Positions 15,584-47,090 of a stretch of 56,561 bases of DNA are shown piece after piece. This stretch comes from a virus (lineage: Duplodnaviria > Caudoviricetes): IMG/VR virus record IMGVR_UViG_3300033149_005620, positions 1-56,561 of that record. One strand, written 5' to 3'. The translations under genes were made by a program, and so were the position numbers. Positions within the stretch are counted from its first letter, which is position 1; each line of letters opens with the position of its first letter. The notes below the pieces were generated by a model, which was not told the DNA's origin, did not search any database, and was given only the letters and a program-made list of their open reading frames with translations.

Positions 15584-16653
15584 GCGTAGGGCACCTCCTT
15601 TGATTTGAGCTGTTCGGATTGTTTTTTCAGCTGCTGCAATCGCTCCTCCTCGCTCATATCCATGCCTTTGGTCGCTTTATCCACCAGTCCAGCTAGATCC
15701 GGGGCGGCCACTGCCCTGAAGCATTTGGCGCACAATCCGGTTTCCAGATCGATCATCACGTTCGTAGCTCCGCAACCTTTACACCGTGAACTCTGTACTG
15801 GCTCCTGGAGGGGCGGACCGCTGGTCGGTTTATTGAACTCCACCCACTTGAGCACCCAGTTCCTCCACGCAGCGATCCAGTCGTTGAATTTACTTTCGAG
15901 CTTTTGGTGGTGAGCTTTAAACTTTTCGAATTGAAAGGGGACCTCCTCTTCGGGCATGTGATATCTTTTCGCATAAGCTTTCATCTCGCTGGTGGGATAG
16001 AAATTCTTTGGGAGTGGCACCTTGACTTTGAAGTGAAATTTCTCTCCCTCGGATTTTTTTGAATTTTTAGGGTGAGGAGGGTCCGCAGGTGCGGCCCTCA
16101 TATTCTCCTTCTCTATCTCCTTCTCCTTCTTTGTCTCTATCTCTATCTCCTTCTCTATCTCTGTCTCTGTCTCTTTTGTCTCCACACTTTGTGGACACTG
16201 TGTTGACACCATGGGGGACAAGGTGTGATACAAAGTGTCCACATCTTGTCTTTTAAGATGCTTCCCTCCGTACCTCCTGAGGGATTCCATCAGTGATTCC
16301 AGCAATGTAAAGGATGAGGGAATAATTTGTGAGACCATAGACAAGATTCCCTGGGCGTGACTTTCGTTTTTTGGAGGGTTCCATTTGAGGTATTTTTTGA
16401 TCAGCACAAATTTTGAGGTCTCGCAGTACTCCAAAAAACCTAATTTTTCAAGGTGTCGACATGATGTGGACACGATGTCCACACTATATCCCAGATCCTC
16501 CGCAATGTAGCTTCTTGGGAGCCGGAAGCAGCCTAAGGAGTTCCCGTGCTCACATGAAAGGAGGTATGCTCCTATCAGCTTGACCTGGTCCGTGAGGTTG
16601 TGGGCTTGAGCCCAGGACCAGTACCTTGTGTGGATTTTTCCGAATTCTCTCAT
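15580..16653 (-). CDS. Phage replication initiator (replisome organiser-like)
   Basis: N-terminal wHTH-like region (YIAEDLGYS), ETETEIEKE linker, C-terminal FEKFKAHH...DWIAAWRNW domain and a CxxC...CxxC motif. Confidence 0.8.
   Translation of the reverse strand: MREFGKIHTRYWSWAQAHNLTDQVKLIGAYLLSCEHGNSLGCFRLPRSYIAEDLGYSVDIVSTSCRHLEKLGFLEYCETSKFVLIKKYLKWNPPKNESHAQGILSMVSQIIPSSFTLLESLMESLRRYGGKHLKRQDVDTLYHTLSPMVSTQCPQSVETKETETEIEKEIEIETKKEKEIEKENMRAAPADPPHPKNSKKSEGEKFHFKVKVPLPKNFYPTSEMKAYAKRYHMPEEEVPFQFEKFKAHHQKLESKFNDWIAAWRNWVLKWVEFNKPTSGPPLQEPVQSSRCKGCGATNVMIDLETGLCAKCFRAVAAPDLAGLVDKATKGMDMSEEERLQQLKKQSEQLKSKEVPYA
16190..16482. repeat. Candidate iterons (replication origin) inside the initiator gene
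   Basis: TGT(G/T/C)GAC-type units about 11 bp apart at 16190 and 16201 and at 16454, 16465 and 16476; inverted GTGTCCAC at 16235; next to a pyrimidine tract at ~16103-16176. Confidence 0.55.
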
Positions 16654-16656
16654 GGT

Positions 16657-16929
16657 TTACCCCACTAACTCATAGGCTTTGCGGACGTCCTCTTCGGTTA
16701 GCTTTCCAGCGACTTTACCGGTAGACGCTTTCAAGTACTCTTGTGGCTTGAAACCTCTTATCTTCTTTGGCCAGGGAGAGCCAAAAGGGGCAAAATAAAT
16801 ATCAGCACCCCTCAATGATGTCTTTTTTTTGGTTCCACGTTTCCACGGTGGGTCTGTGAAAATTCCGTCAACGGAATTATCAGGAAGTGATTTCAAAAAC
16901 TCTATCCCGTCTCTCAGTTGATATACCAA
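16657..16929 (-). pseudogene. Internally deleted N6/N4 DNA methyltransferase remnant
   Basis: DGIEFLKSLPDNSVDGIFTDPPW (catalytic motif IV) followed almost at once by a degenerate motif I (FAPFGS); only 90 aa. Confidence 0.6.
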
Positions 16930-17162
16930 CCCTAACCTCTAACGGCTTGGTTTTTCGCTTGCATTTTATGCCCTGGGCATATTATTAAACTCTTCAAGAG
17001 CTTAACCTTCCCGCCAACCCTCAATACGGGGGCTTCAATGCTGACGTCTATTCAAAAATTCTCCTACTACGTCCACCTGTTTTTCCCTGTTGTTTTTAGT
17101 TCCGATATTATGGTATTCAGAGTTTAAACCCTTTAAACACCTTTAAAAGCAGGAGGCCGCTC

Positions 17163-17483
17163 ATGAAAAAGCTTATTGTTTTTGCTGCTTTACTTTTTGT
17201 TCTGTTCTGGCCATTGTATGCTGGAGCAGGCCAAACCTGGGTCAGAGGCTATTACCGTAGCGACGGAACCTATGTTCAAGGGCATTGGCGGACTACCCCT
17301 GACTCAACTCGGATGAATAACTACTCATACCCAGGGAACTACAACCCGAATACCGGGCGGGTAACGCCCTACTCAAACAACCCAAGAAGGCTATTCCCAT
17401 CAAACCCGAGCCCATATAATGATAGCTTATTAGGACTCCCTGGTTCGAGGCGTGGTTCAGGCTACCGTAATTATGGGCGCTGA
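17163..17483 (+). CDS. Secreted small protein (moron)
   Basis: Signal peptide, VRGYYRSDGTYVQGHWRT...GNYNPNTG; AGGAGG RBS; AT-rich flanks; opposite strand to neighbours. Confidence 0.8.
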   Translation: MKKLIVFAALLFVLFWPLYAGAGQTWVRGYYRSDGTYVQGHWRTTPDSTRMNNYSYPGNYNPNTGRVTPYSNNPRRLFPSNPSPYNDSLLGLPGSRRGSGYRNYGR

Positions 17484-17636
17484 TGCCCGTCAGATTATAT
17501 TGCAAGGTAGTACTCATTCACTGTCGTTTCATAGAATAGTCCATTGTTGCTGTTTCTGGCAGATTTCCCTTTGGTCAACTTTAATAACTTCATGTTATCC
17601 TTGATATTTTCTGTAAAATAATTTTTTCATTATTTT

Positions 17637-17843
17637 TTAATAAGACTCATCCTCAGGTTCCTGGCATACTTTTTCCCAAAAGTCCGGGGAGTCCATCGTG
17701 GCCAGGATGTGTTTGCGGATCGCCTCACAAACAAAATCGCTGCGAGACCTGAACACCTTGTTCCTGGCAGCATCAAGCTGCTCGATCAGCCATCCCGGCA
17801 TGCTGACGGAGATCGTCTCCCGGGCCTCATTGTTGTGAGCCAT
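17637..17843 (-). CDS. Ribbon-helix-helix (CopG-like) regulator
   Basis: TISVSMPGWLIEQLD...SRSDFVCEAIR; AGGAGG RBS. Confidence 0.85.
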   Translation of the reverse strand: MAHNNEARETISVSMPGWLIEQLDAARNKVFRSRSDFVCEAIRKHILATMDSPDFWEKVCQEPEDESY

Positions 17844-17969
17844 GAAAGGCCTCCTGTAGGGTTTTCATGGTGCGAGAGGCAGAGGATAGCGCAATAGGGG
17901 GTTGGGGGCCTACCGCTGCCTATTCCTCTGCCACCACACAGGGGGCTGCGCCCCCGCCTATTTCGTGCT

Positions 17970-18238
17970 TCATTCTGCCCAGGGGTTAAACCCGAGGGCA
18001 TCTCTAATCTTGTCTTTCACCCGGGCGGACACAGGCCTCCCCTTCAGTGCGCGAAGCACCGAGGTATGGCTCAACCCCAGGTCTGACGCGAAATTTCTTA
18101 TTGATTTCCATTGGAACCTGATGATAAGAGTAAGAATTGTTTCCAGTGGAACTTTAGGCGACTCCAGTGAGCGCAAGAACCTGAAAACCTTGAGGTTTTG
18201 GCTGTTTTTCTCTGTCATGGGACTTAGGTGGCGTTTCA
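17970..18238 (-). CDS. HTH DNA-binding protein
   Basis: SIRNFASDLGLSHTSVLRALKG; real start probably MKRH or MTEK rather than 18422. Confidence 0.65.
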
Positions 18239-18281
18239 TAGCAACCCTTCTCCAGGCCCGTAGCCAGCGAAGGAGGATGTC

Positions 18282-18575
18282 ATGAGCCACAAGCTCAAGA
18301 TATACACGGTTATTCTTGATGAACGCATCGCCCGGTATCCGTACCTTGCAAGTGATCTGGCTGAAAAGGCCACAGACGAAAGGGGCAATCCCGTTTACTA
18401 CATGACCTGCACTGAAATCCACGAAGGAGGGACCTACTTCTCGGCAACGGTTTCGAAGCCTCCCAGCGGAGAGCCGCGACGTGTCCTTCTAGATCACTCA
18501 TTCGTTGTTGCAGTGCTTGAAGCGGTGAACCTCCGTAACCAACCCGGGTTCGCCCCAGAGGAATCCCCCGCATGA
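18282..18575 (+). CDS. Hypothetical protein (moron)
   Basis: AAGGAGG RBS; protein-like composition ending in QPGF. Confidence 0.55.
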   Translation: MSHKLKIYTVILDERIARYPYLASDLAEKATDERGNPVYYMTCTEIHEGGTYFSATVSKPPSGEPRRVLLDHSFVVAVLEAVNLRNQPGFAPEESPA

Positions 18576-19024
18576 TTGTTATGCCGTTCATAGATGACCG
18601 AATAGGAGGCATGGCCATGTCCGAGACAAAATCGCACCTGAATCTTTGCCTTGTTGCCTGCTGGAGTTTGGTCTGGTCAGCGACGATCCTTTCAAGGGGA
18701 CCAAAAGACCTCAGCCTCCTCTACTACATTGTATATTCTCGCCAGTTGCCCCTCAGGCCATTGATTTCTATACCCGTATACGTTTTTGGCGTTTGGCTCC
18801 TGGGTTGTGGTTCAATACTTCTCATCAGCAAAGCTATGACAGCGTTAACGCCTGAAAGATGGAGAGAAAACCGCGTCACCATTATTACCTGCGTTTTATT
18901 GGCCCTGTGGGCTTTTTACGCCCTGATGATTCTTGAGGACTCCGAGTTATGGGCATTCGGCACTTTTTTTATTGGTGTCCCCTTTCTGCTCATCTACATG
19001 TTCATCAAGAGCAGGAAAAAGTAA
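18572..19024 (+). CDS. Four-helix membrane protein (possible superinfection exclusion)
   Basis: Four hydrophobic segments; AGGAGG RBS before the internal Met. Confidence 0.6.
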   Translation: MIVMPFIDDRIGGMAMSETKSHLNLCLVACWSLVWSATILSRGPKDLSLLYYIVYSRQLPLRPLISIPVYVFGVWLLGCGSILLISKAMTALTPERWRENRVTIITCVLLALWAFYALMILEDSELWAFGTFFIGVPFLLIYMFIKSRKK

Positions 19025-19198
19025 TTCCATGACCGTCACCTCGCCATTGGTGGCTTCCTGGATCTTAAGGGCAAGCTCAGGAGAGGGGCGACGGGCACCA
19101 CGCAGGATGAGGCTAACAGCAGATTTCGAAATCGATAGCTGTTTTGCAAAGCCTGCTTGACTAAGTTTATATTTCTCTAAATAGTCTTTTATCCGCAT
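18947..19198 (-). CDS. Cro-like HTH regulator
   Basis: LSQAGFAKQLSISKSAVSLILRGARRPSPELALKIQEATNGEVT; divergent from the CI-like gene. Confidence 0.88.
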   Translation of the reverse strand: MRIKDYLEKYKLSQAGFAKQLSISKSAVSLILRGARRPSPELALKIQEATNGEVTVMELLFPALDEHVDEQKGDTNKKSAECP

Positions 19199-19214
19199 AG
19201 GAAATGTATATCAA

Positions 19215-19778
19215 ATGATTTACGACCCGTCAACGGTTTTATTGCTCCCCGGTAAGGAGTTTACTTGCCTTTTGAAGTCGTTCATGAAGACAAAGAAAAT
19301 CTCTTATAACGAATTGGCGCAGAGAATGGGGAAAACAAAGTCAGCCGTCCATAATAATCTGAAAGGCAATCCCAAAACACCCACCCGCGAAAAACTCCTT
19401 CAGGCATTAGGCGAAAAGGATGTCTTGCAGTATTATTTTAATAGCGTCCCGTCTTCACCAAAAAATGGAATAGAGATTGAGGCCAGAGATCTTGCCGTTA
19501 TCCAGGCAATGGCTGACGTAAAAGAAATCATGGAGTCGCGAAATGAGATTATCATCGCTGCCTTGCGGGCAAACATAGCAGCCTTTAAGGCAGCCGTCCG
19601 AGCTGAGGCAAGGTTGAAACAGAGCGAAGAGAAATGGAAGCATACCGAAACGAACCTAAAGCAAGAGATAGATAGGCTAGAAAAAAAAGTGCGATATCTG
19701 GAGCAGTTGGCCGGCCCCCAGCAAGAGTCCTCTACCGGAAAGGCAGATGGCATCGGTACGCAGAAAAAGAGAGTGTAA
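19215..19778 (+). CDS. CI-like XRE repressor with C-terminal coiled coil (likely start 19284)
   Basis: ISYNELAQRMGKTKSAVHNNLKG HTH; no S24 peptidase domain visible. Confidence 0.78.
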   Translation: MIYDPSTVLLLPGKEFTCLLKSFMKTKKISYNELAQRMGKTKSAVHNNLKGNPKTPTREKLLQALGEKDVLQYYFNSVPSSPKNGIEIEARDLAVIQAMADVKEIMESRNEIIIAALRANIAAFKAAVRAEARLKQSEEKWKHTETNLKQEIDRLEKKVRYLEQLAGPQQESSTGKADGIGTQKKRV

Positions 19779-19784
19779 TATACT

Positions 19785-20162
19785 TTGAATTTAGTTGAAG
19801 AAAGAATTGATTTTGGCTTGCAAAACTTGATGAAACTAGGAGGGGCTATGGAAAACCATGAAAGCGGAATGATTTTCAATATCCTGATCAAAGAAGACGA
19901 TGGCATGTTTGTCGCTCACTGTCTGGAGCTCGATATCGTTGCCACCGCGGAGAGTGTCGAACAAGCCCAGAAAGACATAATTGCCCTCATATGCGCTCAG
20001 GTCGACTACGCATTCAGCAACGATAATCTTGAGAACCTTTACTGTCCCGCCCCCGCAGAAGTATGGCAAGAGTTTTGGAGTGCAGAAAACAGCGGGGGAA
20101 GAGATATAAGATTGAAAATACCTTCAAAGCCTGAGCCTGAAATTTCTCTTGATTTTTGTTAG
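19785..20162 (+). CDS. HicB-like antitoxin-fold protein (orphan)
   Basis: ILIKEDDGMFVAHCLELDIVATAESVEQA; GGAGGGG RBS before MENHES. Confidence 0.65.
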   Translation: MNLVEERIDFGLQNLMKLGGAMENHESGMIFNILIKEDDGMFVAHCLELDIVATAESVEQAQKDIIALICAQVDYAFSNDNLENLYCPAPAEVWQEFWSAENSGGRDIRLKIPSKPEPEISLDFC

Positions 20163-20205
20163 AAAATGACGATATTATTTACGTGTGTTAAAAGCTGCTT
20201 TGAGT

Positions 20206-20276
20206 AAAAAGTGCCCCTTGTGACGCTTCGGGAAATTAAGAAATAGCTCGGAGCCGACCAAGGGGCTTTGCTTTTT
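20206..20276 (+). ncRNA. Long RNA hairpin in the leader of the NYN gene
   Basis: AAAAAGT/GCTTTTT, GCCCCTTG(20213-20220)/CAAGGGGC(20259-20266) and GCTTCGGG/CTCGGAGC stems; T-rich 3' end; possible promoter TTGATT(20149)-N18-TATTAT(20173). Confidence 0.55.
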
Positions 20277-20287
20277 GTGGAGGAGTC

Positions 20288-20920
20288 ATGCGGAGAGTTG
20301 TATTCATGATTGATGGTTGGTTCATGCGTAAAAGGATATATAAGCTCAAAACATTTTACTATTCAGGCCCTGAGATCCGCAAATACTGCTTAAAGCATTT
20401 GCGGGAGAACGATTATCTATACCGTATCTTCTATTATGATACCGCCCCTTTAGAGAAAAAGGGGCATAACCCCATATCAAAAAAAGCCATCGATTTCAGT
20501 CAGACCGCCGTAGCCAAAGCCCAGAGTAAGTTATTCGAATCCATAAAAACCACGCCTAACTTTGCCCTTCGCCTTGGTAAGGCGGTTTGGAAAAACAATG
20601 AATGGATACTGGCTCCAGATAAACTCAAATCACTGATAAGCAAAAATCTATCTGTTGATGATCTTTCTGAGCACGATGTTCGCCCCCTTATTGAGCAAAA
20701 GGCCGTTGATATGAGGATCGGCCTTGATATAGCCCTCATAGCGATAAAAAGAATAGCTGATTTATTGATCATTATCACCGGGGATGCAGATATTGTCCCT
20801 GCTTTGAAGTTTGCGAGACGTGAAGGCATGCAGGTTTGCCTTGATCCGCTACGCAATCCTATTCAACCGGAGCTGGAAGAACACGTGGATTTCATAGATA
20901 CAAAGATTCCCAAATTATAG
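20288..20920 (+). CDS. NYN-domain (PIN-like, LabA/DUF88) ribonuclease
   Basis: VFMIDGWF, YRIFYYD, EQKAVDMRIGLD, ITGDADIVPALKFARREG. Confidence 0.92.
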   Translation: MRRVVFMIDGWFMRKRIYKLKTFYYSGPEIRKYCLKHLRENDYLYRIFYYDTAPLEKKGHNPISKKAIDFSQTAVAKAQSKLFESIKTTPNFALRLGKAVWKNNEWILAPDKLKSLISKNLSVDDLSEHDVRPLIEQKAVDMRIGLDIALIAIKRIADLLIIITGDADIVPALKFARREGMQVCLDPLRNPIQPELEEHVDFIDTKIPKL

Positions 20921-21045
20921 GCCATTCATTCCTCCCTCATAATACCCGCTAGAGCTTTCCACCGAGATAACTAACCCTTGCCAATCATCTCTCCACCAGT
21001 GGCACTTGAGTGTAGGTTTTTATTGCCGAATCATATCTTTTTTAG

Positions 21046-21074
21046 TTGACAAGTTGTAAATCTTTTAATATACT
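21046..21074 (+). promoter_or_regulatory. Sigma70 promoter for the rightward early operon
   Basis: TTGACA(21046-21051)-17 bp-TATACT(21069-21074). Confidence 0.8.
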
Positions 21075-21083
21075 TCCCCAATC

Positions 21084-21338
21084 ATGACCACCAAAATCGT
21101 CATAGTCAAGCAGCATCTCTACGAAACCATCAAGGCCGATTTTAGGCGCCAGGGCTGGGAGTTCTGCTCCGCGGTGTTTAAGGGAGGCCTGGTCACGCTT
21201 GAGTTTAGCCTAACCCCGCCACGCCCCGCCAAGCCACGGCATGCCCTGCCAAGCTGGGCCACGTTGGGCCAAGCCTCGCCATGCCATGGAAACCAAAAAA
21301 CCAGTAAGGAGGACAGCAGATGTATGAAATCGAAGTAA
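21084..21338 (+). CDS. Small hypothetical protein, nearly leaderless; its C-terminal half reads through array 1
   Basis: The first ~43 aa look protein-like; the rest is repeat-derived low complexity (PPRPAKPRHA). Confidence 0.45.
   Translation: MTTKIVIVKQHLYETIKADFRRQGWEFCSAVFKGGLVTLEFSLTPPRPAKPRHALPSWATLGQASPCHGNQKTSKEDSRCMKSK
21206..21285. repeat. Pentamer array 1: 16 x NN-RCC (GGY-NN on the minus strand), candidate guide RNA
   Basis: taGCC taACC ccGCC acGCC ccGCC aaGCC acGGC atGCC ctGCC aaGCT ggGCC acGTT ggGCC aaGCC tcGCC atGCC. Confidence 0.9.
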
Positions 21339-21919
21339 CGGTAAGAGGTTTGACGCCGATCCTGATGCACAGCGCAAGAGCGATGATGGCCCAGGCCAGC
21401 GTAAGGACGCGCAGCCAGTCAATCCCGCTCTCGGAAGACGAAGCGGAGCTATCGGCGTACAAGACCGAGGATGGATTTCTCTACATGCCAGGTGATGCAT
21501 TTCGCTCATCCATCGTCCAGGCCGCCGGGCCTTACAAGCAGGGTCGCACCTCGGTCAAGAGCGTGCTGAGCGGCGCGATCCTGGAGATGAAACCGGAAGA
21601 GCTGATCCTGGTGCGTGATGGCAAACGCATCACCGAATACGCAGTGGATGTCCGCAGGGTGGTAGTGCAGGGGAACGCGGTCCTGCGCTCCAGGGCCAGG
21701 ATAGACCTCCCCTGGGAGACAACGTGGGAGATGTGGATCGATGAGAACATGTTCAACGAAAGCTTCATCAAGGATACCCTGCCAGATATTATCAACCGCG
21801 CCGGACTGGTGATAGGCGTGGGGGACTTCCGGCCCGGATCTCCGAAGTGCAAGACGGGGAGATTCGGGCGATACGAGATTGCGAAGTATGAGTTCCCGGT
21901 TAAGAAGGGGGGCAAGTAA
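21320..21919 (+). CDS. Stand-alone RAMP/Cas7-like protein
   Basis: N-terminal beta strand plus TP (IEVTVRGLTPILMH), YMPGDAFRSSI (like RAMP iPGSslKG), thumb-like VDVRRVVVQGNAVLRSRARI, C-terminal Gly-rich loop GVGDFRPGSPKCKTGRFGRY; AAGGAGG RBS. Confidence 0.72.
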   Translation: MYEIEVTVRGLTPILMHSARAMMAQASVRTRSQSIPLSEDEAELSAYKTEDGFLYMPGDAFRSSIVQAAGPYKQGRTSVKSVLSGAILEMKPEELILVRDGKRITEYAVDVRRVVVQGNAVLRSRARIDLPWETTWEMWIDENMFNESFIKDTLPDIINRAGLVIGVGDFRPGSPKCKTGRFGRYEIAKYEFPVKKGGK

Positions 21920-21928
21920 TGCTTTTAC

Positions 21929-21993
21929 ACGCCTAGCCCGGCCATGCCGAGCCCGGCCGAGCCGGGTCCGGCCGCGCCAAGCCAAGCCAAGCT
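21929..21993. repeat. Pentamer array 2: 13 x NN-RCC (GGY-NN on the minus strand), candidate guide RNA
   Basis: acGCC taGCC cgGCC atGCC gaGCC cgGCC gaGCC ggGTC cgGCC gcGCC aaGCC aaGCC aaGCT; fully intergenic. Confidence 0.9.
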
Positions 21994-22019
21994 TATTATG
22001 ATCAAGGGAGCGACACAGC

Positions 22020-22805
22020 ATGAAGCATCTGGAGAGTAAAGAAGTCAACATCGCAGAGCTGGTGCTGGACTTCAACATCTACCCCCGGCACACGATAAGC
22101 GACAGCACCGCCAGGAAGTATCAGGAGGCCTACAGCCTGGGGGCCGAGTTCCCTCCCGTGAGGGTGGAGGCCAGGTCAATGCGGGTGGTGGACGGATTTC
22201 ACCGCGTCGCCGCCTGCACCAGGAATAAATCCGATACCATCAAAGCAGAGCTCTACGAATTTGAGGATGATAAGGATCTCCTGTTCTGGGCAATGGCCTG
22301 GAATTCCACGCACGGCCAGAACCTGTCAGAGGTTGACTACGCCAGATGCTACCTGATCGGCACAAAGGCCGGAATGAAGCCGGAGCTGATAGCCGAAGCC
22401 CTGAGTGTGAAAATTACCAAGCTAAAGCACGCGAGGCAGAAAGGCGTCGCGGATCCCAAGCTCAGACGCGCAATAACGCACGCAGACTCAGCAATATTCA
22501 AGAAGCCATCCCGCAGTGACCTTGTCCAGCCCAAAATCAAGGAAGATGAGGAGCAAAAGAAGGTCAACAGGATCTTCGAGAGCCCCACCAGGCAGGGGGC
22601 GGAAAGAAAACCCGATGAGCCAGTGATAGACTGGCGCGAGCGCTACGAGAGGGAGCTGGAGATCAGGCTCGCCCTCGAGAAGGAGAACGAGAAGCTGAAG
22701 GAGCAGGTAAGACGACTGAAGGAGACAGTGTTTCGCCTCAGCCGGGAAATCAACCCCGATGAGCCTGAATTCGTCCCCGACGAGGCGGAGGACGCCGTGC
22801 TCTAA
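22020..22805 (+). CDS. ParB/Srx-like N-terminal domain protein with coiled coil
   Basis: IYPR, FPPVRV...VVDGFHRVAA, NSTHGQNLS, HTH-like IAEALSV. Confidence 0.82.
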   Translation: MKHLESKEVNIAELVLDFNIYPRHTISDSTARKYQEAYSLGAEFPPVRVEARSMRVVDGFHRVAACTRNKSDTIKAELYEFEDDKDLLFWAMAWNSTHGQNLSEVDYARCYLIGTKAGMKPELIAEALSVKITKLKHARQKGVADPKLRRAITHADSAIFKKPSRSDLVQPKIKEDEEQKKVNRIFESPTRQGAERKPDEPVIDWRERYERELEIRLALEKENEKLKEQVRRLKETVFRLSREINPDEPEFVPDEAEDAVL

Positions 22806-22817
22806 AGGGAGGCACTG

Positions 22818-23045
22818 ATGATGTCGGACCTGGAGCTTTTCGAAATTCATGAGGGAAGACGCAAGAAGGTCGCCATTGTGAGCGAGGAGATCATCTCGCG
22901 CATGGGGCCTGAGGCCTTCTTCCCGATCCAGAAAGCTCTGGGACGCATGTGGGACCCTACCCCGGATTCGTCTGGGAATCCGTTTAGCGCCCGGTCGCCC
23001 CAACAAGGGTGGGGTTGGGACCGCAAGCGCGACGGTGACAGGTAG
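22818..23045 (+). CDS. Hypothetical protein
   Basis: GGGAGG RBS. Confidence 0.5.
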   Translation: MMSDLELFEIHEGRRKKVAIVSEEIISRMGPEAFFPIQKALGRMWDPTPDSSGNPFSARSPQQGWGWDRKRDGDR

Positions 23046-23200
23046 GGCCAAGAAAATAAAGCGTAGGAGGTTAGGCAGGGGCGCGTAACCGGGCAACCTA
23101 ACAGCATAACCTTTTGAGCCCGGGCGGGACCTAGTGGCCTGCGGAGCCAAAGCCGGGGTCTCCGCCAGGCCCATGGCCCCGCCCCAGAAGGGAGAGGTTC

Positions 23201-23473
23201 GTGCCCCGAAAGGACACAAGGCAGCAGCTACCGCTTTTCACTCCTCTTGGCCGTGCATTCTCAGAAGAGCGCGAAGCTGCCGACATGCGCATAATGGTTT
23301 TGGATTCCCTTGCGAAGCAATGGTACGGAGGCCTCCAGCGGGTCGAAGGTGAGAACTGTATCGAATGCGGAAAACCGCTCTACTTCCACTGGAATTACTT
23401 GAACTCCAAGTCGAAGGCGATTGTCTATTGCAGAGATTGCGGATGGCATACGGAGGTGCAGCTCAATGATTGA
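23201..23473 (+). CDS. Zinc-ribbon protein
   Basis: CIECG...YCRDCGW. Confidence 0.6.
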   Translation: MPRKDTRQQLPLFTPLGRAFSEEREAADMRIMVLDSLAKQWYGGLQRVEGENCIECGKPLYFHWNYLNSKSKAIVYCRDCGWHTEVQLND

Positions 23474-23625
23474 TAACCCAATCTATAGTGAACTTGACCG
23501 CCTCTACCAGCAGAACCTGGAATTGCGGCAGAGGCTCGGCAGTGTCCTTGCGGAAAACAGGCGACTCAGGAGGACGTTGGGGCTTATCGTGAAGGTTCTG
23601 AAATATAACTTACCGAGGAGGAAAA

Positions 23626-24747
23626 ATGAGCAAACACGATAGCGCATCAGCACAGGAACAAAAGGAGTTTTCCCTGGAGGAATACAGGGCAAGGTCGTTC
23701 AACGTGTTAGTCCCCACCCAAACCCTCAGGACCTATTCCGACATGCACGAGCCCGTCCTTGAGCAGGTGTTCCTATCACCCAACCCGGACGACGGCGACG
23801 TGTACGTCCAGGAGCAGGGGAATCAAAGGAAGCCCACCAAATACGCGCTTACTAAGCAGGCACTCATGAAGCTGAGCCTTTGCGCTGGCATCATGTGGCA
23901 CCCTGCCGAGACAAGGCGCACGGATGACAGAAGCGATAAGAATTATGTGAGCTATCAAGCAGTCGGCGGGGTGCGCAAGTCCGACGGCACCTGGGTGTTC
24001 TGGAAGGGGGAGTACGACCTCGACTTTGAGGTCATCGAGATGGAGCTGGAGGAGCAGTACCGCAACAAGGCCGAGAAATACGAGGCCGACGAGGACGCCA
24101 CCTGGTGGCAGAAGAAGACTGAGGATGAAAAGGAAGCTTACATTCAGCGCTGCATCCGGAGGGACCTGCTCCAGAAGCGGAAGCATAAACTGAAACTGGC
24201 CGAATCCGGCGCAATGAACAGGGTGATCCGCGCCGTCCTCGGGATGAAAAGCACCTACACCAAAAAGGAGCTGGAACAGCCCTTTGTTGTGGCCCGGGTT
24301 GTATTCCGTCCCGATTACTCGGACCCGGAGGTTAGGCGGCAGCTCACCGAGGCGTCCATAGACGCTATGACGAGCATCTACGGCCCCCCCAGGGGCGCAT
24401 ACAAAGCGGGGGCGCCGGCGCCGGGCTCTGACCCTGGTCCTGGGAAGCCGCCGGATCAACAACGGCCCCCTGGGTCTCACACCATCATCGACGTAGAACC
24501 CGAGGAACCCCCGGACCCTGAAAACGGAGAGGCAGAGGGAGGACCGCCCGAGGGGGACAGCAGGGAAGTTGATTTCATCAACAGCGGCGTGGATGACCAG
24601 ATAAAGACCCTGACTCTGCTTGCAGCGCGTAAGGGCTATGACATGACGCAGCTCAAGAGGCCCATACTACAGTGGGAGCCTGAACACCGCATAGGCTTCT
24701 TCCGGAAGCTTAATTCCATGCCCGACAAAGAGGAGAACCCGTACTAG
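23626..24747 (+). CDS. Putative recombination/ssDNA-annealing protein
   Basis: 373 aa with a Pro-rich linker, upstream of SbcCD; function inferred from context only. Confidence 0.45.
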   Translation: MSKHDSASAQEQKEFSLEEYRARSFNVLVPTQTLRTYSDMHEPVLEQVFLSPNPDDGDVYVQEQGNQRKPTKYALTKQALMKLSLCAGIMWHPAETRRTDDRSDKNYVSYQAVGGVRKSDGTWVFWKGEYDLDFEVIEMELEEQYRNKAEKYEADEDATWWQKKTEDEKEAYIQRCIRRDLLQKRKHKLKLAESGAMNRVIRAVLGMKSTYTKKELEQPFVVARVVFRPDYSDPEVRRQLTEASIDAMTSIYGPPRGAYKAGAPAPGSDPGPGKPPDQQRPPGSHTIIDVEPEEPPDPENGEAEGGPPEGDSREVDFINSGVDDQIKTLTLLAARKGYDMTQLKRPILQWEPEHRIGFFRKLNSMPDKEENPY

Positions 24748-24883
24748 GCTGATGAACTGGATAATAGGGATAGTTTTCGTGCTGGGCATGTCTCTGGCCA
24801 TGAACGAGGGCGACTATTTCCCCTGGGCGAACCTGCTTGGATTTCTGTTAATGCTTGGCATGCTGAGGCTGATGAGGCGATAA

Positions 24884-25180
24884 ATGCGGTTGTTTGCAAG
24901 CATATTCTTTCTGTTGGGCGTGATCACCGCTGTACTGGTTTTGGGGCTGTTTGCAGGCTGGGTGCTCAAACGATGGGAGAGGGAGATGACGAAGGAGTAC
25001 GTAATAAAGGACAGGAAGATGGGGCTGTATTTTGTAGGTCATGCAGATGGCGGTCGGTACGAGCTCGGCTCGAAGCGCAGGGCAAGGCGTTTCCACAGCG
25101 CGTCCTTTGCCGCCTACGTCGTGGAGGCCCTCAGCAAGGTGGCGGAAGGTCCCTTTGAGATCGAGAAAATAAGGAGATGA
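24884..25180 (+). CDS. Hypothetical protein with N-terminal membrane helix
   Basis: ORF in a coupled operon. Confidence 0.45.
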   Translation: MRLFASIFFLLGVITAVLVLGLFAGWVLKRWEREMTKEYVIKDRKMGLYFVGHADGGRYELGSKRRARRFHSASFAAYVVEALSKVAEGPFEIEKIRR

Positions 25181-25383
25181 GGGAGATGGGCAAAACCTAT
25201 GAGATCCAATACTCCATGGCCGTGCGGCGCTGGGTCGGCGTGGAGCAGAAGGGTCCGCTCTCGAAGGTCCTCTGCGTGGGCGAGACCCCGGCGGAGTGCT
25301 TCAGCCAGCTTGAGCGGGCGGACGGCGCGGACACGAAGACCGTGTTCGCGGTCGAAGTGGAAAGCGAGGAGGCAACGCCATGA
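25177..25383 (+). CDS. Hypothetical protein
   Basis: ATGA overlaps on both sides. Confidence 0.55.
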   Translation: MREMGKTYEIQYSMAVRRWVGVEQKGPLSKVLCVGETPAECFSQLERADGADTKTVFAVEVESEEATP

Positions 25384-25655
25384 GATTGAACCAAGAGGTG
25401 ATTCAAACGATTGAGGAGAGCGTAAGCAGGCTCTTGTCGGAATACAAGGATGAACTGAATGAAGCCTATCTCAAATGCGACGAGAGGAAATTCTCCATAG
25501 CGCTGGGAACAAAGATTGAGGAGACCGACAACGGCCGCTTCAAAGTAGAGACCTCGATCAGCTTCGTGAAGGATAAGGTCAAGGACTCGACCATCGACTA
25601 TGTCGATGCCGAGCAAGTCTCATTCAACTTCAAAAACTCGGAGGCAGGCTCGTGA
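25380..25655 (+). CDS. Hypothetical protein
   Basis: Coupled to the sbcD-like gene. Confidence 0.65.
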   Translation: MRLNQEVIQTIEESVSRLLSEYKDELNEAYLKCDERKFSIALGTKIEETDNGRFKVETSISFVKDKVKDSTIDYVDAEQVSFNFKNSEAGS

Positions 25656-26887
25656 AGATATTCCACTTGGCAGACCTGCATATTCGTGACCACGATATAG
25701 ATCAGTGCTGGCGTTGCCTGCATGCTGTAACAGAAAAGGCGCAGGTGGAGCGGCCCGACCTCGTGGTCGTGGCGGGAGATATTTTCGACAACCAGGCGGT
25801 CAAGCTCGGGTCGGATTCGGCAAGGCTCGCGGTGGGCTGGTTCTCCCAGATAGCAGCTATTGCGCCGGTGATATGTGTAACGGGAACGCCGTCGCACGAC
25901 GGCAAAGCGCCCGAAATACTGGCACACATCAATAACCCGGGCATCTGGGTATCTGCGGTGCCGGAGCAGATCGTAGTCGCGAAGGGGGAAATCTGGACAA
26001 TGCAGGATTTCTGGGACACCGCATCCCCTGACATAAGCGATTGCGACTTGATCGTAAGTCTTGTTCCCGCGCCGACAAAGCAGTTCTGGGACAGCCGCGG
26101 CGGGATCCTCGAGACGGACCAGGAAATCTCTCAGACCATGAGCGGCATCTTCGCAGGGTTCGGGGACATCGCTTCGCAGTTTAGCTGCCCCCACATTTTA
26201 GTGGGCCACTTCTCTGTCCGGGGCGCAGAGATATCTGAAAGCCAGGTCATGGTCGGGCGCGAGATTGAGATTGGCAAAGACCAGCTTTCACTGGCCAACG
26301 CCCACCTGGTTCTCCTCGGGCACATACACAAGCGCCAGAGTATCGAACCCAACATCTTCTATTCCGGGTCCCTTTACCCTCTCAATTATGGCGAGAAGGA
26401 AGATAAGGGCTATTACATACAGACAATTGATGGGACCGCAACGCTGTCCCAATTCATCAAAACACCCCACCGCAAACTCACAAGGCTCATATATGACTTC
26501 ACCCGCCATGAGGAGGATACGCTGCACGACCTAGACATCGTGCTGTATAGCCTGGCCCCTGAAGAGGTCCAGGGGGCTGCCCTGCGCGTGGAGCTGAGGG
26601 TGTGGCAGGATGAAGCGGAACAGTTGGACCCTGAGGGAATCAAGAAATTCTACCTTGACGGCGACTTTAGCGTTTACAGGGCAAGCTCGGTTGAGGTGCG
26701 GATCGTGCGAGTACCCAGGGAGAATGTGAGGTGCGAAACTATCCTGAAAGCGCAAAAGCTGAGAGAGAAAATTCTTGAGCGAGCCCGGGTGTCCGGAGAA
26801 AACGGGGTGCCGGAGAGCATTCTGGAAAAGGCCGATAGCCTCGAAGCCCTGCCAGCACAGGAGCTTGTCGAGCGGGTATCACGCTAA
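25652..26887 (+). CDS. sbcD: SbcD/Mre11-like metallophosphoesterase nuclease
   Basis: HLADLH, AGDIFD, GTPSHD, LVGHF, LGHIH, YSGSL. Confidence 0.9.
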   Translation: MKIFHLADLHIRDHDIDQCWRCLHAVTEKAQVERPDLVVVAGDIFDNQAVKLGSDSARLAVGWFSQIAAIAPVICVTGTPSHDGKAPEILAHINNPGIWVSAVPEQIVVAKGEIWTMQDFWDTASPDISDCDLIVSLVPAPTKQFWDSRGGILETDQEISQTMSGIFAGFGDIASQFSCPHILVGHFSVRGAEISESQVMVGREIEIGKDQLSLANAHLVLLGHIHKRQSIEPNIFYSGSLYPLNYGEKEDKGYYIQTIDGTATLSQFIKTPHRKLTRLIYDFTRHEEDTLHDLDIVLYSLAPEEVQGAALRVELRVWQDEAEQLDPEGIKKFYLDGDFSVYRASSVEVRIVRVPRENVRCETILKAQKLREKILERARVSGENGVPESILEKADSLEALPAQELVERVSR

Positions 26888-26913
26888 AAGATTAACCCCA
26901 GGGGTTAATAGCT

Positions 26914-27162
26914 TTGAAAGGAGGCGTAATGGAGAAGAAGATAGGCCCTACCGGCAGATTTCCGGAGGGCAAGATTAACGAGCATGATGAGGGCGAGCTC
27001 CGGATCGGCATCCCGACCGATGGGGAAAAGGTCGTGGTCAGTTTCGGCGTGCCCGTGTTGTGGCTCGCCATGACTGGAGATCAAGCGATAGAACTGGGCG
27101 ATGCGTTGACGAAGCATGGCCGCAAGGCCAACGGCTGGGACGGAGGAATAAATGAAAATTGA
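26914..27162 (+). CDS. Hypothetical protein
   Basis: GPTGRFPEGKINEHDEGELRIGI; GGAGG RBS before MEKK. Confidence 0.65.
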   Translation: MKGGVMEKKIGPTGRFPEGKINEHDEGELRIGIPTDGEKVVVSFGVPVLWLAMTGDQAIELGDALTKHGRKANGWDGGINEN

Positions 27163-29455
27163 GTCGATCAAACTGCGCGGATTCATCGGCATCAAGAAAG
27201 GGCTGGGGCTCGACGACCTCGCCCTTGATCTGTCCAGTCTTTCCGGTCTGGTTGCTATTGCCGGGCAAAACGGCAGGGGGAAGACCTCACTCCTTGAGAA
27301 CCTCCAACCGTTTCGCGCCTTCGCATCACGCAAGAGGGCGCTGCAGCACCACGTGTTCTTGAGGGATAGCTACAGGGAGCTTTCCTTCAGGTGGAATGGC
27401 GATGTCTACCGGACCCTCCTGAAGATTGATTGTGACAGCGAGCGCCAGGAAGGGTTTATCTGGAAGAACGGGGATCCCCAGGTGAACGGCAAGGTGCGGG
27501 ACTACGATCGCTATATTGAGGGGCTCTTCGGTAGTTCTCGGCTCTTTTTCAACAGCGTGTTCTGCGCCCAGGGCGCAGAAAAAATCACGGACATGACCCC
27601 GGGGCAGCTTAAATCGTTGTTTACCGAATTCCTCCGCCTGGACCGCTACGTTGAATGGGAGCAGACCGCGAAGCAAATTGGCCAGGTCCTGAGTGGAAAG
27701 GCAAACCAGTTGCAAAAAGAGGTCCAGCACCTTGAACGCATAGTGGGCGAGATCGAAGGGCTGAGGATAAAGCTGATCACGGAAAGGCAGCGGTATGAGC
27801 AACAGAATAAGCGAACCCAGGGGCTGGCAGGTGAGTTGGAGCGCGTAAAGAATGAGCTTGACATTGCCAGCGAGACTGAGAGCAAGAACAGGGTCCTGCG
27901 CGCTAAGCTCGATGCCTACAGCGAAAGCCATGAGGCCGCCCGGAGGGACCTTGCAGCCATTGAGGGGGATGCCCGGGAGGAGATTGAAAGGTTTGGCCGG
28001 GAAATAGCTAAGCTTGAGGGGGAAATTGCGCGCTATAAGGGCATCCTTGAGGAAGGCGACAGGATCACCAGTGCGGTGAGGGAATCAGAGGAGGCCGCTG
28101 CGAGGCTAGCAGGTCTCCTAAAGGATCTGGAGGATACGAGGGCAAAAAATGATGAAGCCCAAGGTTCTATTGGCAGAGTAAAGGAGGAGCTCGCCAAAGC
28201 GAAGGCTGAAAAAGCGAGCTTGAGCGAAGCTAAGGACCTCGCAGTCCTTGAGGCCAGGCTCAAGGCAGCGAAGGAGGATTTGAAGACTTTAAATCTCCGC
28301 GACCCTGCCTGCCGGTCCACTACCTGCTCATTTATCGCCAGGTCCATAGAATCCCAAAAAGCGATTCCGGGCCTCGAACGCCAGATAGGAGAATTAAAAG
28401 CCGAGCAGGAAAAGCGGCTTGAGGCGGTGGAAAAAGACATCCGCTCCGCTACCGAAAGGTTGCGCTCCCTTGAGGGTGAGCAGGGTAAACTCGGTGAGAG
28501 CATCGCGCGGGTCAAAAAAGCGATCACAGAGCAGCAACAGATAATCAGCCGGAACAAGGCATTCGGGGATAAGGCATCCCAACTTGAGACGGCGCGTGCA
28601 GCAGTTTCCTCTACAGACGACCGGCTGTTCGCTCTGGTGAAGGATCGCCATCTGGCCAAGGAGAAATGGGATAAGAAGGTACGCGCCAAGCAGGAGGAAA
28701 TCAGGGTACTCGCAAAGATGAAAGAGGAGGTCAAAGCGGGGATAGACGAGAAAGCGGAGTCAAGGGTCGCGGAGCTGAAAGGGAAGATTGAGGCTCTGCA
28801 AGGGGAGTTCGCCCAGGGTGAAAAGGCGTGCGCCGAAACCTCCAGGAACATCGCGGTGCTTGAAAATCAGCTTCAACAGGCGGAACGGGAGAAAGAAAAG
28901 CTTGCTGCGCTACAAGGAGAAATTGGGAGGGTGAAGAACGAGGTGTCTGAGTGGGCATACCTACAGACGGCGTGCGGGGCGAATGGCCTCAGGGCGCTGG
29001 AGATTGATAGCGTCGCGCCGGCCATCAGCGCATACGCGAACGAATTGCTCAGCCAGGCTTTTGGCCCTCTGTTCACGGTGCGCCTCCGGACCCAGGACGA
29101 GGAGGGCAGGGAAGTTCTGCAAGTCCTCGTCATGCGGGAGGACGGCAGCGAGCCGCTGCTTGAGAACCTCTCAGGCGGGGAGAAAATATGGATACTAAAG
29201 GCTCTGCGCCTGGCAATGACGCTGATCAGCAAAGAAAAGAGCGGCCACAATTTCCTCACGTGTTTGGCCGACGAGGAAGATGGGGCGCTGGACGTAGAAA
29301 ACGCCTTGAACTTCATTCGCCTGTATAGAGCGTTCATGGTCTCTGGCGGGTTTGAATCATGCTTTTTCATCAGCCATAAGCCAGAGTGCGTGGCCATGGC
29401 GGATCACCAGGTGCTGTTTCAGAGCGGCGGAGTTGAGGTGAACGCAGGCGCATAG
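27152..29455 (+). CDS. sbcC: SbcC/Rad50-like SMC ATPase
   Basis: Walker A GQNGRGKTS, long coiled coils, central CRSTTC hook, LSGGE signature, Walker B/D-loop LADEEDGALD, ISH. Confidence 0.92.
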   Translation: MKIESIKLRGFIGIKKGLGLDDLALDLSSLSGLVAIAGQNGRGKTSLLENLQPFRAFASRKRALQHHVFLRDSYRELSFRWNGDVYRTLLKIDCDSERQEGFIWKNGDPQVNGKVRDYDRYIEGLFGSSRLFFNSVFCAQGAEKITDMTPGQLKSLFTEFLRLDRYVEWEQTAKQIGQVLSGKANQLQKEVQHLERIVGEIEGLRIKLITERQRYEQQNKRTQGLAGELERVKNELDIASETESKNRVLRAKLDAYSESHEAARRDLAAIEGDAREEIERFGREIAKLEGEIARYKGILEEGDRITSAVRESEEAAARLAGLLKDLEDTRAKNDEAQGSIGRVKEELAKAKAEKASLSEAKDLAVLEARLKAAKEDLKTLNLRDPACRSTTCSFIARSIESQKAIPGLERQIGELKAEQEKRLEAVEKDIRSATERLRSLEGEQGKLGESIARVKKAITEQQQIISRNKAFGDKASQLETARAAVSSTDDRLFALVKDRHLAKEKWDKKVRAKQEEIRVLAKMKEEVKAGIDEKAESRVAELKGKIEALQGEFAQGEKACAETSRNIAVLENQLQQAEREKEKLAALQGEIGRVKNEVSEWAYLQTACGANGLRALEIDSVAPAISAYANELLSQAFGPLFTVRLRTQDEEGREVLQVLVMREDGSEPLLENLSGGEKIWILKALRLAMTLISKEKSGHNFLTCLADEEDGALDVENALNFIRLYRAFMVSGGFESCFFISHKPECVAMADHQVLFQSGGVEVNAGA

Positions 29456-29482
29456 GAGGCACGACAGGGAGTATATACACGG

Positions 29483-29878
29483 GTGGCAAGGACCTATAAA
29501 ACAAGCAAGGCTGATTTTGAGTTATTTAAGAAGCATGTCGGAAAGTGGGTTGATGTTTTTGGGCTCAAATGCTGGCAACTCCACTTTACCACAGAGACGC
29601 TCGCCAACGAGCGAGCGCAAATAAGATATAACCTCATTCATCGACAGGCAATATTTGCGTTGAACACAGAATTTCGGGAATATGAAGACATTTCAATAGA
29701 CAAGGCATTAATTGAGCGAACAGCTTTTCACGAAGTCATGGAACTATTTCTTGCCCCTTTGGTGGGAATGATCGAGCAAAGGTTTGCTCTTGGGGTAGAC
29801 GATATTACAGAAGCCACTCACATGATAATTAGAACACTTGAAAATGTTGTGTGGGAAGGAGGAACTCATGTCAAATAG
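29483..29878 (+). CDS. Hypothetical protein, possible zincin-like fold
   Basis: TAFHEVMEL (HExxE). Confidence 0.55.
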   Translation: MARTYKTSKADFELFKKHVGKWVDVFGLKCWQLHFTTETLANERAQIRYNLIHRQAIFALNTEFREYEDISIDKALIERTAFHEVMELFLAPLVGMIEQRFALGVDDITEATHMIIRTLENVVWEGGTHVK

Positions 29879-30770
29879 AATATTGTGCTTTTATCACTCC
29901 GCAGATCTTGACGGGCATTGTTCAGGTGCTCTCGTCAAGATGGCATATCCTGAATGTGAATTGCACCCTATTGACTATGGTGACAAATTCCCCTGGGACC
30001 TTGTAAGGCTTGATTCACTGGCCGAGATAGGCAGAATTTTCATGGTGGATTTCTCCCTTCAGCCTTTTGAAGAGATGGTCAAGCTGCAGCAATTAACGGA
30101 TAACAAGCTCATTTGGATAGATCACCACAAGTCAGCGATAGAGGCCCATAAGGAATGGAACAACAGGCATCCCGCATATCTTTCCATTTGTGGCATCAGG
30201 GAGGTTGGTGCTGGTGCATGCGAGCTTGTTTGGAGATATTTGAGGAAGCGCCTTCATCCTCTCCTTCAGGGCTTACCGGAAGGACCGCCCCTTTTCGTTC
30301 GGTTGCTTGCAGAATACGACGTTTGGGATCACTTCGACCCGCGAACCCTGCCTTTCCAATATGGGGTTCGCCTGCATGACACAGCACCTGAAAATCAGGA
30401 CTTCTGGCGTAGCCTTTTCTACCAAAGCATATGCGAAAGAATTATCAATGAGGGCGAGGTGGTGCTCAAATACATTGAACGGGACAACAAGAAGTATGCC
30501 CAAGCTACGTGGTTCCCTGTTTATTTCAACAACCTAAAGTGCATTGCGATTAATCGGGCATTCGGCAATACCAAGCTTTTCAACTCAGTAGATACAGGCC
30601 AATATGATGCCATGATCGCGTTTGCATACCAAAAGGATAAATGGGTAGTTTACCTGTACAGCGCCAAGCCGGAGGTTGATGTTTCCGAGATAGCAAAAGA
30701 ATATGGAGGCGGCGGACACAAGGCTGCTGCTGGTTTTGTCTGTCAGGAATTACCCTTTCCGCTGAAGTAG
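29838..30770 (+). CDS. DHH/DHHA1 phosphoesterase (oligoribonuclease-like)
   Basis: YHSADLDG, MVDFS, WIDHHKS, YGGGGHKAAAGF. Confidence 0.92.
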   Translation: MKMLCGKEELMSNRILCFYHSADLDGHCSGALVKMAYPECELHPIDYGDKFPWDLVRLDSLAEIGRIFMVDFSLQPFEEMVKLQQLTDNKLIWIDHHKSAIEAHKEWNNRHPAYLSICGIREVGAGACELVWRYLRKRLHPLLQGLPEGPPLFVRLLAEYDVWDHFDPRTLPFQYGVRLHDTAPENQDFWRSLFYQSICERIINEGEVVLKYIERDNKKYAQATWFPVYFNNLKCIAINRAFGNTKLFNSVDTGQYDAMIAFAYQKDKWVVYLYSAKPEVDVSEIAKEYGGGGHKAAAGFVCQELPFPLK

Positions 30771-30779
30771 GGAGGGGGT

Positions 30780-30971
30780 ATGCCCAAGGAGATGATTGTC
30801 ATTTATGATGGTCAGCTCTGTGATACCGGCAGGGCGCGGCTCTTTAGGTTTGGTGATGACGAAGCATGGATCCCCGAAAGCCAAATACTCTGGGAGGATC
30901 GGACAGCGAACGAGTTGCTGTTACCAGAATGGCTCGTCATTGAGAAGGGACTGGAGGGATATGCGAAATAA
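30780..30971 (+). CDS. Small hypothetical protein
   Basis: EAWIPESQI...LPEWLVIEKGL; GGGAGG RBS. Confidence 0.65.
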   Translation: MPKEMIVIYDGQLCDTGRARLFRFGDDEAWIPESQILWEDRTANELLLPEWLVIEKGLEGYAK

Positions 30972-31227
30972 GTTAGGTAGGTGGAAGCGAATGGAAGATG
31001 AGATCTATAGTGTCAAAGAGGTAGCAAAGTTCCTCCGGGTACATGAGCTCACGGTATATGCGCTGATCCATAGGGCTGCCCTTCCATCGCGGAGGTTGGG
31101 CGGCAAACATCTGATTTCCGGTAAGGCCCTAGCAAAATGGCTAGAGAACGGTGGAGAGATCTCCAAGGTCTCGTGTCTAAGAAGAAGTAGGTTTGGAGAT
31201 GATACTTGTAAGGGACGTAAAAATTGA
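30961..31227 (+). CDS. Excisionase-like HTH protein
   Basis: YSVKEVAKFLRVHELTVYALIHRAALPSRRLGG. Confidence 0.78.
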   Translation: MRNKLGRWKRMEDEIYSVKEVAKFLRVHELTVYALIHRAALPSRRLGGKHLISGKALAKWLENGGEISKVSCLRRSRFGDDTCKGRKN

Positions 31228-38085: not shown

Positions 38086-38135
38086 AAGTATGGCAAGTCG
38101 TGGCAGTTTATGGCGTTTTATGGCATCTTATGGCA
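38086..38135. repeat. Five 10-bp tandem units NNNNNTGGCR
   Basis: aagtatggca agtcgtggca gtttatggcg ttttatggca tcttatggca. Confidence 0.75.
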
Positions 38136-47088: not shown

Positions 47089-47090
47089 TT

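Follow-up and report, generated by a model that had tools for sequence, protein, structure and literature searches.

The question raised by this locus is on which strand its guides are read. VIPR, a relative of CRISPR, is a discovery of 2026, and its rules have been derived mainly from two systems studied in detail. It consists of a Vipr protein and of vrRNAs of 9-16 YNNGG repeats, whose NN bases recognize double-stranded DNA with one skipped base per unit, usually the codon wobble, and its targets are competing phages and satellites; NNNGG, YNNNG and NNNNG repeats are also named (bioRxiv 10.64898/2026.04.26.720920). The window, meaning the whole stretch of 56,561 nucleotides analyzed here, is a complete virus record with terminal repeats, and the phage is temperate, with integrase, terminase and portal genes. 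A first-pass annotation had described a repeat at 21206-21285 as a decodable message with an orientation puzzle, its GGY-type strand lying opposite to the strand that the operon promoter would transcribe. Because the decoding rule of VIPR has been published, the rule sought by that annotation is already known, and the repeat does carry a message of the guide type in the sense of the published system. Since the 2026 preprints, Array 1 is thus an ordinary kind of guide array; what is unusual is the polarity of its scaffold relative to about 100 comparison loci. Guide polarity and scaffold in this locus, within a large ParB-linked clade, disagree with the VIPR rules, which makes the locus an inexpensive system for asking how strictly GGY is required and whether guide genes can lie antisense to vipr.

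Array 1 (21206-21290, + strand), the upstream guide (vrRNA) array for which + is favored as the RNA strand, consists of 16 units of two variable bases plus GCC, spanning the 80 bases of 21206-21285, and of an in-phase 17th, terminal unit, AT-GGA, at 21286-21290. Array 2 (21929-21993, + strand), the downstream guide array, has 13 such units, with GCC in 11 of them, GTC in one and GCT in one. In register from 21206, the + strand triplets of Array 1 are GCC (12 units), ACC, GGC, GCT and GTT. Re-reading this strand gave the same variable dinucleotides as had been listed before (TA TA CC AC CC AA AC AT CT AA GG AC GG AA TC AT). The three imperfect triplets noted at first pass, GGC, GCT and GTT, are present, but their count has to be raised by ACC in unit 2, which is still R-CC. 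The claim that the phase is never lost holds across all 80 bases, and no insertion or deletion occurs in the 16 units of Array 1 or the 13 of array 2. Read on the minus strand, the 29 units of both arrays have GGC 23 times and GGT once. Matches to GCCNNGCCNNGCCNNGCC with one mismatch allowed number 18 in the window against 0.55 expected, with a shuffle maximum of 3 and none of 100 shuffles reaching 18; all 18 are on the + strand and inside one of the two arrays. A period-5 scan of the whole window that used no motif likewise returned only the two array regions. Vipr is therefore flanked by five-base units of three fixed and two hypervariable bases, 16 (plus one) on one side and 13 on the other, which is the make-up of VIPR arrays.

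The order of the locus is promoter (21046), leader, Array 1, vipr, array 2 and a ParB-like accessory gene. The vipr gene (21320-21919, + strand) encodes a RAMP-type RNA-binding protein of 199 aa (phrog_4652, E 1.3e-14), for which a Pfam search gave no family. The profile of its family (31 members) matches the PDB entry 36pp, "SUSP1 Vipr protein", over its full length (positions 1-184, E 2.2e-16), and hhalign of the family against the SUSP1 gene product gave 98.7%. With tblastn, the window Vipr also finds Pseudomonas phage LESphi2 (E 4e-8), whose protein is 37.6% identical to that of SUSP1. The family has 1215 representatives at E up to 0.001, the best being 44% identical; related loci of the window Vipr sought in viral contigs were not found. 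The frame is open and all family motifs are present. According to the text of bioRxiv 10.64898/2026.04.26.720927, SUSP1 Vipr contacts G1 of the triplet through H17 and D177, G2 through R138 and W178, and Y3 through R179 and a narrow pocket; in the alignment columns, H17, R125, D169, F170 and R171 of the window correspond to SUSP1 H17, R138, D177, W178 and R179. Downstream, the ParB-like gene (22020-22805, + strand; phrog_1033, E 2.1e-07) likely encodes an accessory (vap-type) DNA-binding partner, and it has tblastn matches in 40 related loci, mostly directly 3' of vipr and its array. Because of the match to the SUSP1 Vipr profile and of a downstream ParB-like gene placed as in these 40 loci, 21206-21285 and its sister array are, on sequence grounds, the predicted guide-RNA arrays of a phage VIPR locus. 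Vipr homology, flanking arrays, the ParB-like gene, the temperate phage and the lack of a self-target above shuffles all count for this identity.

Compared with canonical GGY/NN VIPR (Escherichia phage SUSP1 and a Pseudomonas fulva prophage; 10.64898/2026.04.26.720920, 10.64898/2026.04.26.720927), the window shares a Vipr of about 20 kDa with its G-loop and guanine contacts, 9-16 five-base units up- and downstream of vipr, a DNA-binding accessory gene, the phage context, the lack of a self-target and a candidate target with the skip on the codon wobble. The validated vrRNA1 of SUSP1 is likewise located upstream of vipr, on the vipr strand. However, GGY lies opposite vipr in the window and the sense strand reads GCC, which places the locus outside the canonical type with its GGY scaffold on the vipr strand; moreover, the accessory gene is ParB-like and the window Vipr is only about 21% identical to that of SUSP1. 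A conserved structured 3' tail or pseudoknot, a trait of VIPR type II (the SUSP1 clade), was not found after the window arrays, and relatives in the ParB-linked clade are likewise without a long tail. Non-canonical cores (GAC/NN, CAC/NN, WGT/NN and TGH/NN) are reported in the text of bioRxiv 10.64898/2026.10.21.760802; such VIPR-like arrays resemble those of the window in having a period of 5, about 10 or more units, a Vipr-like fold beside them and a triplet other than GGY. A GCC core is not named in the passages of that text that were covered. Arrays were oriented there by assuming the strand of neighboring genes, according to the same text, so the guide strand is not settled by it. Read cyclically, YNNNG can be written G-Y-N-N-N, a form that could include G-C-C-N-N. 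A likeness to Class 1 CRISPR Cas7-crRNA is also drawn in the texts of the two April preprints (10.64898/2026.04.26.720920, 10.64898/2026.04.26.720927), in that RAMP protomers assemble into a polymer along a guide RNA, whose pairing is interrupted at regular steps by a thumb; unlike Class 1 CRISPR, the window locus has no repeat-spacer array, adaptation genes or nuclease, and its guide information is non-contiguous.

A predicted sigma-70-like promoter of the VIPR operon lies at 21046-21074 on the + strand (TTGACA, 17 nt, TATACT; 11/12 in a consensus scan). It is the best of eight sites in 16000-31000, is located 130 nt upstream of Array 1 and, as had been proposed, would transcribe the RCC strand, with the GGY strand antisense to it. 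On the minus strand, no promoter-like site was found upstream of Array 1 or array 2 at the default scan threshold. A relaxed scan gave none for Array 1 and one weak site for array 2 (TTCATG-18-CATAAT, 8/12), which ends beside that array. These scans report consensus matches only, and within that scope the earlier remark that no clear antisense promoter is visible can be upheld. The leader between promoter and Array 1 (21081-21205, + strand) folds no better than shuffles on either strand (z -0.68 and -0.07), nor do the array flanks on both strands (z -0.69 to +1.17). A shared tail in the left flanks of Array 1 and array 2 was also considered and was dropped, the flank alignment being weak.

The polarity of other loci was established in two sets. 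Scanning viral contigs with a strand-neutral pattern yielded 139 loci, of which 63 lacked a Vipr match in the examined DNA, while the remaining 76 reduced to 67 distinct Vipr frames; GGY was on the vipr strand in 65 of these 67 and opposite in two (L037 and L068). The second set was seeded by protein and comprised 54 metagenome loci from the clade nearest the window: 39 had sense arrays only, two had both orientations, none had opposite arrays only and in 13 no array was detected. With GGY on the vipr strand in 65/67 and 39/41 informative loci and on the opposite strand here, the orientation puzzle is a genuine one. None of the 54 nearest-clade loci combined a GCC scaffold on the vipr strand with an absence of GGY arrays. 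GGY arrays are also on the vipr strand in SUSP1, LESphi2, Saal and DSL-LC04. The gene order of the window (vipr, array, ParB-like gene) recurs in L020 and in many of the 54 loci, but with GGY in sense. A third guide array follows the ParB-like gene in many relatives. In the window, an ORF-free, G+C-rich stretch of about 155 nt (23046-23200) lies after the small gene that follows the ParB-like gene, and it has no Rfam match and no period-5 signal.

Three comparison loci carry arrays whose G-rich strand is opposite vipr, as in the window. In L238, the strand opposite vipr carries a canonical GGY array (403-560) upstream of the region with the vipr promoter; a TTGAAT-17-TATGGT site, recognized by eye, points into the array, and the array's 3' end is the clade-typical GGCACGGCACGGT. 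L238 appears to be a clean example of a divergently transcribed guide gene. Unlike those of the window, this array ends in canonical units and has a promoter-like site of its own, and the locus also contains a sense array. In the texts of the three VIPR preprints, no statement on guide genes antisense to vipr was found. L037 and L068 differ from the window in encoding two distant Vipr-like proteins and in having arrays of G-Y-C units on the vipr strand, with T in about one third of the middle positions. A search for relatives of the L068 Vipr returned only the protein itself. The arrays of L068 are separated by spacers of about 25 nt with AATCTTGTCC; in L020, these ten bases recur between the sense GGY arrays and have the same direction with respect to vipr. 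In L276 (Gordonia phage MakoManhole), copies of an element of about 45 nt (1375-1420, 2710-2755 and 2830-2875) separate GGC arrays around a vipr homologue; with a T-loop-like core, GGTTCGACTCC, inside a stem, the element resembles a tRNA-like minihelix, by which guides could be directed to processing by RNase P/Z. Hammerhead-interspersed arrays, not elements of this type, are mentioned in bioRxiv 10.64898/2026.04.26.720920.

Evidence on the guide strand was also sought in the variable bases of 385 canonical arrays (loci L005-L255). Their 4578 dinucleotides are asymmetric, with AA 512 versus TT 283 and GA 510 versus TC 194. The last unit is AA in 101, GA in 65 and TA in 9 of the 385 arrays, AA and GA predominate in the final one to three units, and an in-phase GGA follows the end in 69/385. 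This suggests that guides are mostly in the sense of target codons and that the end units are a fixed cap and not guide; neither point was found stated in the portions of the VIPR preprints that were covered. On the + reading, the window arrays end in AT-GCC-AT-GGA (Array 1) and AA-GCC-AA-GCC-AA-GCT (array 2), while on the minus reading both would end in TA units. An orientation classifier trained on the dinucleotides of 322 canonical arrays was correct for 267/322 (83%) in cross-validation. It scored the + direction at +1.09 bits for Array 1, which is weak, and at +9.36 bits for array 2; if array 2 ran on the minus strand, its misfit would be equalled by only 0.3% of canonical arrays. The inverted array of L238 was called correctly (+2.52 for its GGY strand), and all four arrays of L068 scored for the sense strand. 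Since the RNA strand equals the gene strand in the training loci, the classifier signal could partly reflect sense-strand base composition. The imperfect triplets bear on the strand as well. If the window arrays are read on the minus strand, four of the five non-GGY units are pure G-to-A changes, which become C/T exchanges on the + strand; canonical arrays have pure G-to-A in 14 of 133 non-GGY units (1547 units), a difference with p of about 6e-4 by our own arithmetic. GGT makes up 1 of the 24 GGY units of the window on the minus strand versus 407/1414 in the clade.

Since the skip is symmetric, a search of double-stranded DNA cannot distinguish the guide strands, but it can be used to look for targets. 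In the phage's own genome, the best scores of Array 1 were 19, 21 and 20 of 32 at gaps 0, 1 and 2, reached by 192, 24 and 101 of 200 shuffles, and at gap 3 the array itself was the only match, which leaves no self-target above shuffles. In viral contigs, seeds of units 1-8 gave 14 loci and seeds of units 9-16 gave 42, the best full score being 24/32. Decoding units 9-16 gives L-(N/K)-G-T-G-(N/K)-S-(I/M), which resembles a P-loop and accounts for the many seed matches. No match was obtained with units 5-13 (9-unit seed) in viral contigs or with units 4-14 (11-unit seed) in either genome contigs or metagenome contigs, and five terminase-bearing contigs gave nothing above shuffles. The contig-wide scans use exact seeds, with gaps 0, 2 and 3 tested only locally, so that a target with scattered mismatches would be missed. 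The expectation of a gapped match for Array 1 was accordingly not borne out, neither in its own genome at gaps 0-3 nor among the contig seeds, of which none exceeded 24/32.

For array 2, a 9-unit seed with a one-base skip matched eight distinct viral contigs. All eight matches keep the codon register, the skipped base being the wobble position, and spell Y-R-M-E-R-D-G-R-A, and in five of the eight the tenth unit (N/K) matches as well, for a total of 20-21 of 26 bases. Read on +, array 2 is matched from its first to its tenth unit, and only the AA-type end units fall outside. The matched gene, which comes after a small-subunit gene (phrog_309), encodes a terminase large subunit (phrog_2, E 6.9e-25) and is unrelated to the window's own terminase (best E 3.6). 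When the order of the nine dinucleotides was shuffled, no match was found. The chance of a 20-base match was estimated from 16-base seeds at about 0.05-0.2 events, a rough figure and not a test, so the terminase large subunit of other phages is a candidate and not a proven target of array 2.

Two readings of the strand have to be weighed against each other. The first, which we prefer at slightly less than even confidence, is that the array RNA is the sense strand with a non-canonical G-C-Y (GCC) scaffold. It draws support from the sense promoter and the missing antisense promoter, from the dinucleotide polarity (mostly of array 2) and from the transition spectrum of the imperfect triplets, as well as from the G-Y-C units on the vipr strand in L037 and L068 and the non-canonical cores reported in the text of 10.64898/2026.10.21.760802. 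The other, possible and held with distinctly less than even confidence, is that the minus strand encodes the arrays as canonical GGY/NN vrRNA genes, which would lie within the vipr operon, antisense to vipr, and depend on weak or unrecognized promoters. GCC is the exact reverse complement of canonical GGC, as expected of ordinary arrays on the other strand, and the minus strand reads GGC or GGT in nearly all units. The residues that hold G1 and G2 in SUSP1 are all kept in the aligned window Vipr, and GAY, AGY or GGA in place of GGY abolished silencing in SUSP1 (figure legend, 10.64898/2026.04.26.720920). The absence of GCC-only loci in the nearest clade also speaks against the sense reading, and the canonical array of L238 with its own promoter-like site is a precedent for guides opposite vipr. 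The weak site beside array 2 is another point for antisense guides, as is the direction of unwinding in SUSP1, which the text of 10.64898/2026.04.26.720927 gives as 3' to 5' on the guide; on the minus reading, the 5' end is where the array 2 target has its two unmatched units. The case for the sense strand is further weakened by the low classifier score of Array 1, by promoter scans limited to consensus and by the lack of an Array 1 target in the searches. However, Array 1 has no minus-strand promoter-like site; no single inversion converts the order of the window to the canonical order, so antisense canonical guides would need two separate in-place inversions; dinucleotide polarity and end units fit the + strand; and both the G-to-A spectrum and the rarity of GGT are unlike canonical arrays. 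GCC differs from GGC in the middle base only, so the look of an inverted array may be the coincidence of a one-base change in the scaffold.

The remaining explanations deny the arrays a present role as guides. That they are inactive relics, once functional guides left without usable expression and decaying by transitions, seems improbable. Five of 29 units are off GGY on the minus reading, nearly all by transitions, and the target searches with Array 1 were negative; however, neither the 16 nor the 13 units have lost phase, the vipr frame remains open and keeps all family motifs, and array 2 keeps 10 consecutive units that match a conserved terminase motif. Sites of TRAP have a triplet plus two-base spacing that resembles the arrays. 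The triplets could in the same way be mRNA or DNA binding sites of a multimeric regulator controlling vipr and the ParB-like gene and holding no guide information, with the arrays in the 5' leaders of these two genes. This is very improbable, since the adjoining protein is a homologue of Vipr, whose family has been shown to use such arrays as guides, and since the variable bases of array 2 match a foreign gene in codon register; the idea was set aside on the clear Vipr homology. Hardly credible is the last explanation, that Array 1 is the coding 3' half of a real small protein. The frame spanning the array, ORF 21084-21338, is indeed open, with 84 aa and an ATG a few bases past the second hexamer of the promoter, and its first half is the leader. 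However, it has no Pfam or PHROG match, its residues 1-42 are without a homologue, and no Shine-Dalgarno-like sequence was seen on inspection by eye. Its sole tblastn match over the comparison loci is between the array-encoded part and another array, and the view that the module had been inserted into the end of a small gene was therefore abandoned. Because G+C-rich five-base repeats contain no stop codons, arrays of other loci are crossed by open frames too. A likeness of the 84-aa frame to the C-terminus of Vipr was also tried, and no alignment was found at E up to 100.

On the preferred sense reading, a + strand RNA would be made together with vipr, its G-C-Y scaffold changed from GGY in the middle base alone, and the array would only resemble an inverted canonical one. 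By analogy with the published systems, one Vipr protomer would hold the fixed triplet of each five-base unit, Vipr presumably binding GCC units here, and would present the two variable bases to double-stranded DNA, in which one base is skipped for every unit. The outcome, by the same analogy, may be the silencing of a gene of a competing phage. More tentatively, and rather doubtfully, the window together with L037 and L068 might represent a second scaffold class of VIPR guides, G-Y-Y/C in sense, used by a Vipr that keeps all known guanine contacts. If so, the first G and the last pyrimidine of each triplet would be enough for filament assembly. Because a changed middle base would be orthogonal to GGY guides, decoy GGY guides of rival phages or satellites could not hijack the window Vipr. 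A real GCC scaffold would enlarge the range of designs for programmable DNA binding and point to orthogonal sets of guides, whereas antisense guides would be a new way of expressing guides. The match of array 2 adds the terminase of other phages as a candidate class of natural target for an uncultured temperate phage.

Further observations concern the rest of the window. A tRNA scan gave none, an Rfam search of 20000-24000 gave only two chance-level snoRNA matches (E 0.22 and 0.34), and the window terminase, searched in genome contigs for host inference, had no relative there. A gene for an NYN-domain protein (PIN-like nuclease; phrog_5783) is located at 20288-20920 (+), directly upstream of the VIPR promoter; no such gene was found beside vipr in other comparison loci. 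The early operon shared with the VIPR locus also contains SbcD-like and SbcC-like nuclease genes and a DHH phosphoesterase gene (25652-29455, + strand). On the minus strand, 38128-47175 is a single open frame of 3015 aa in this phage genome of 56.5 kb.
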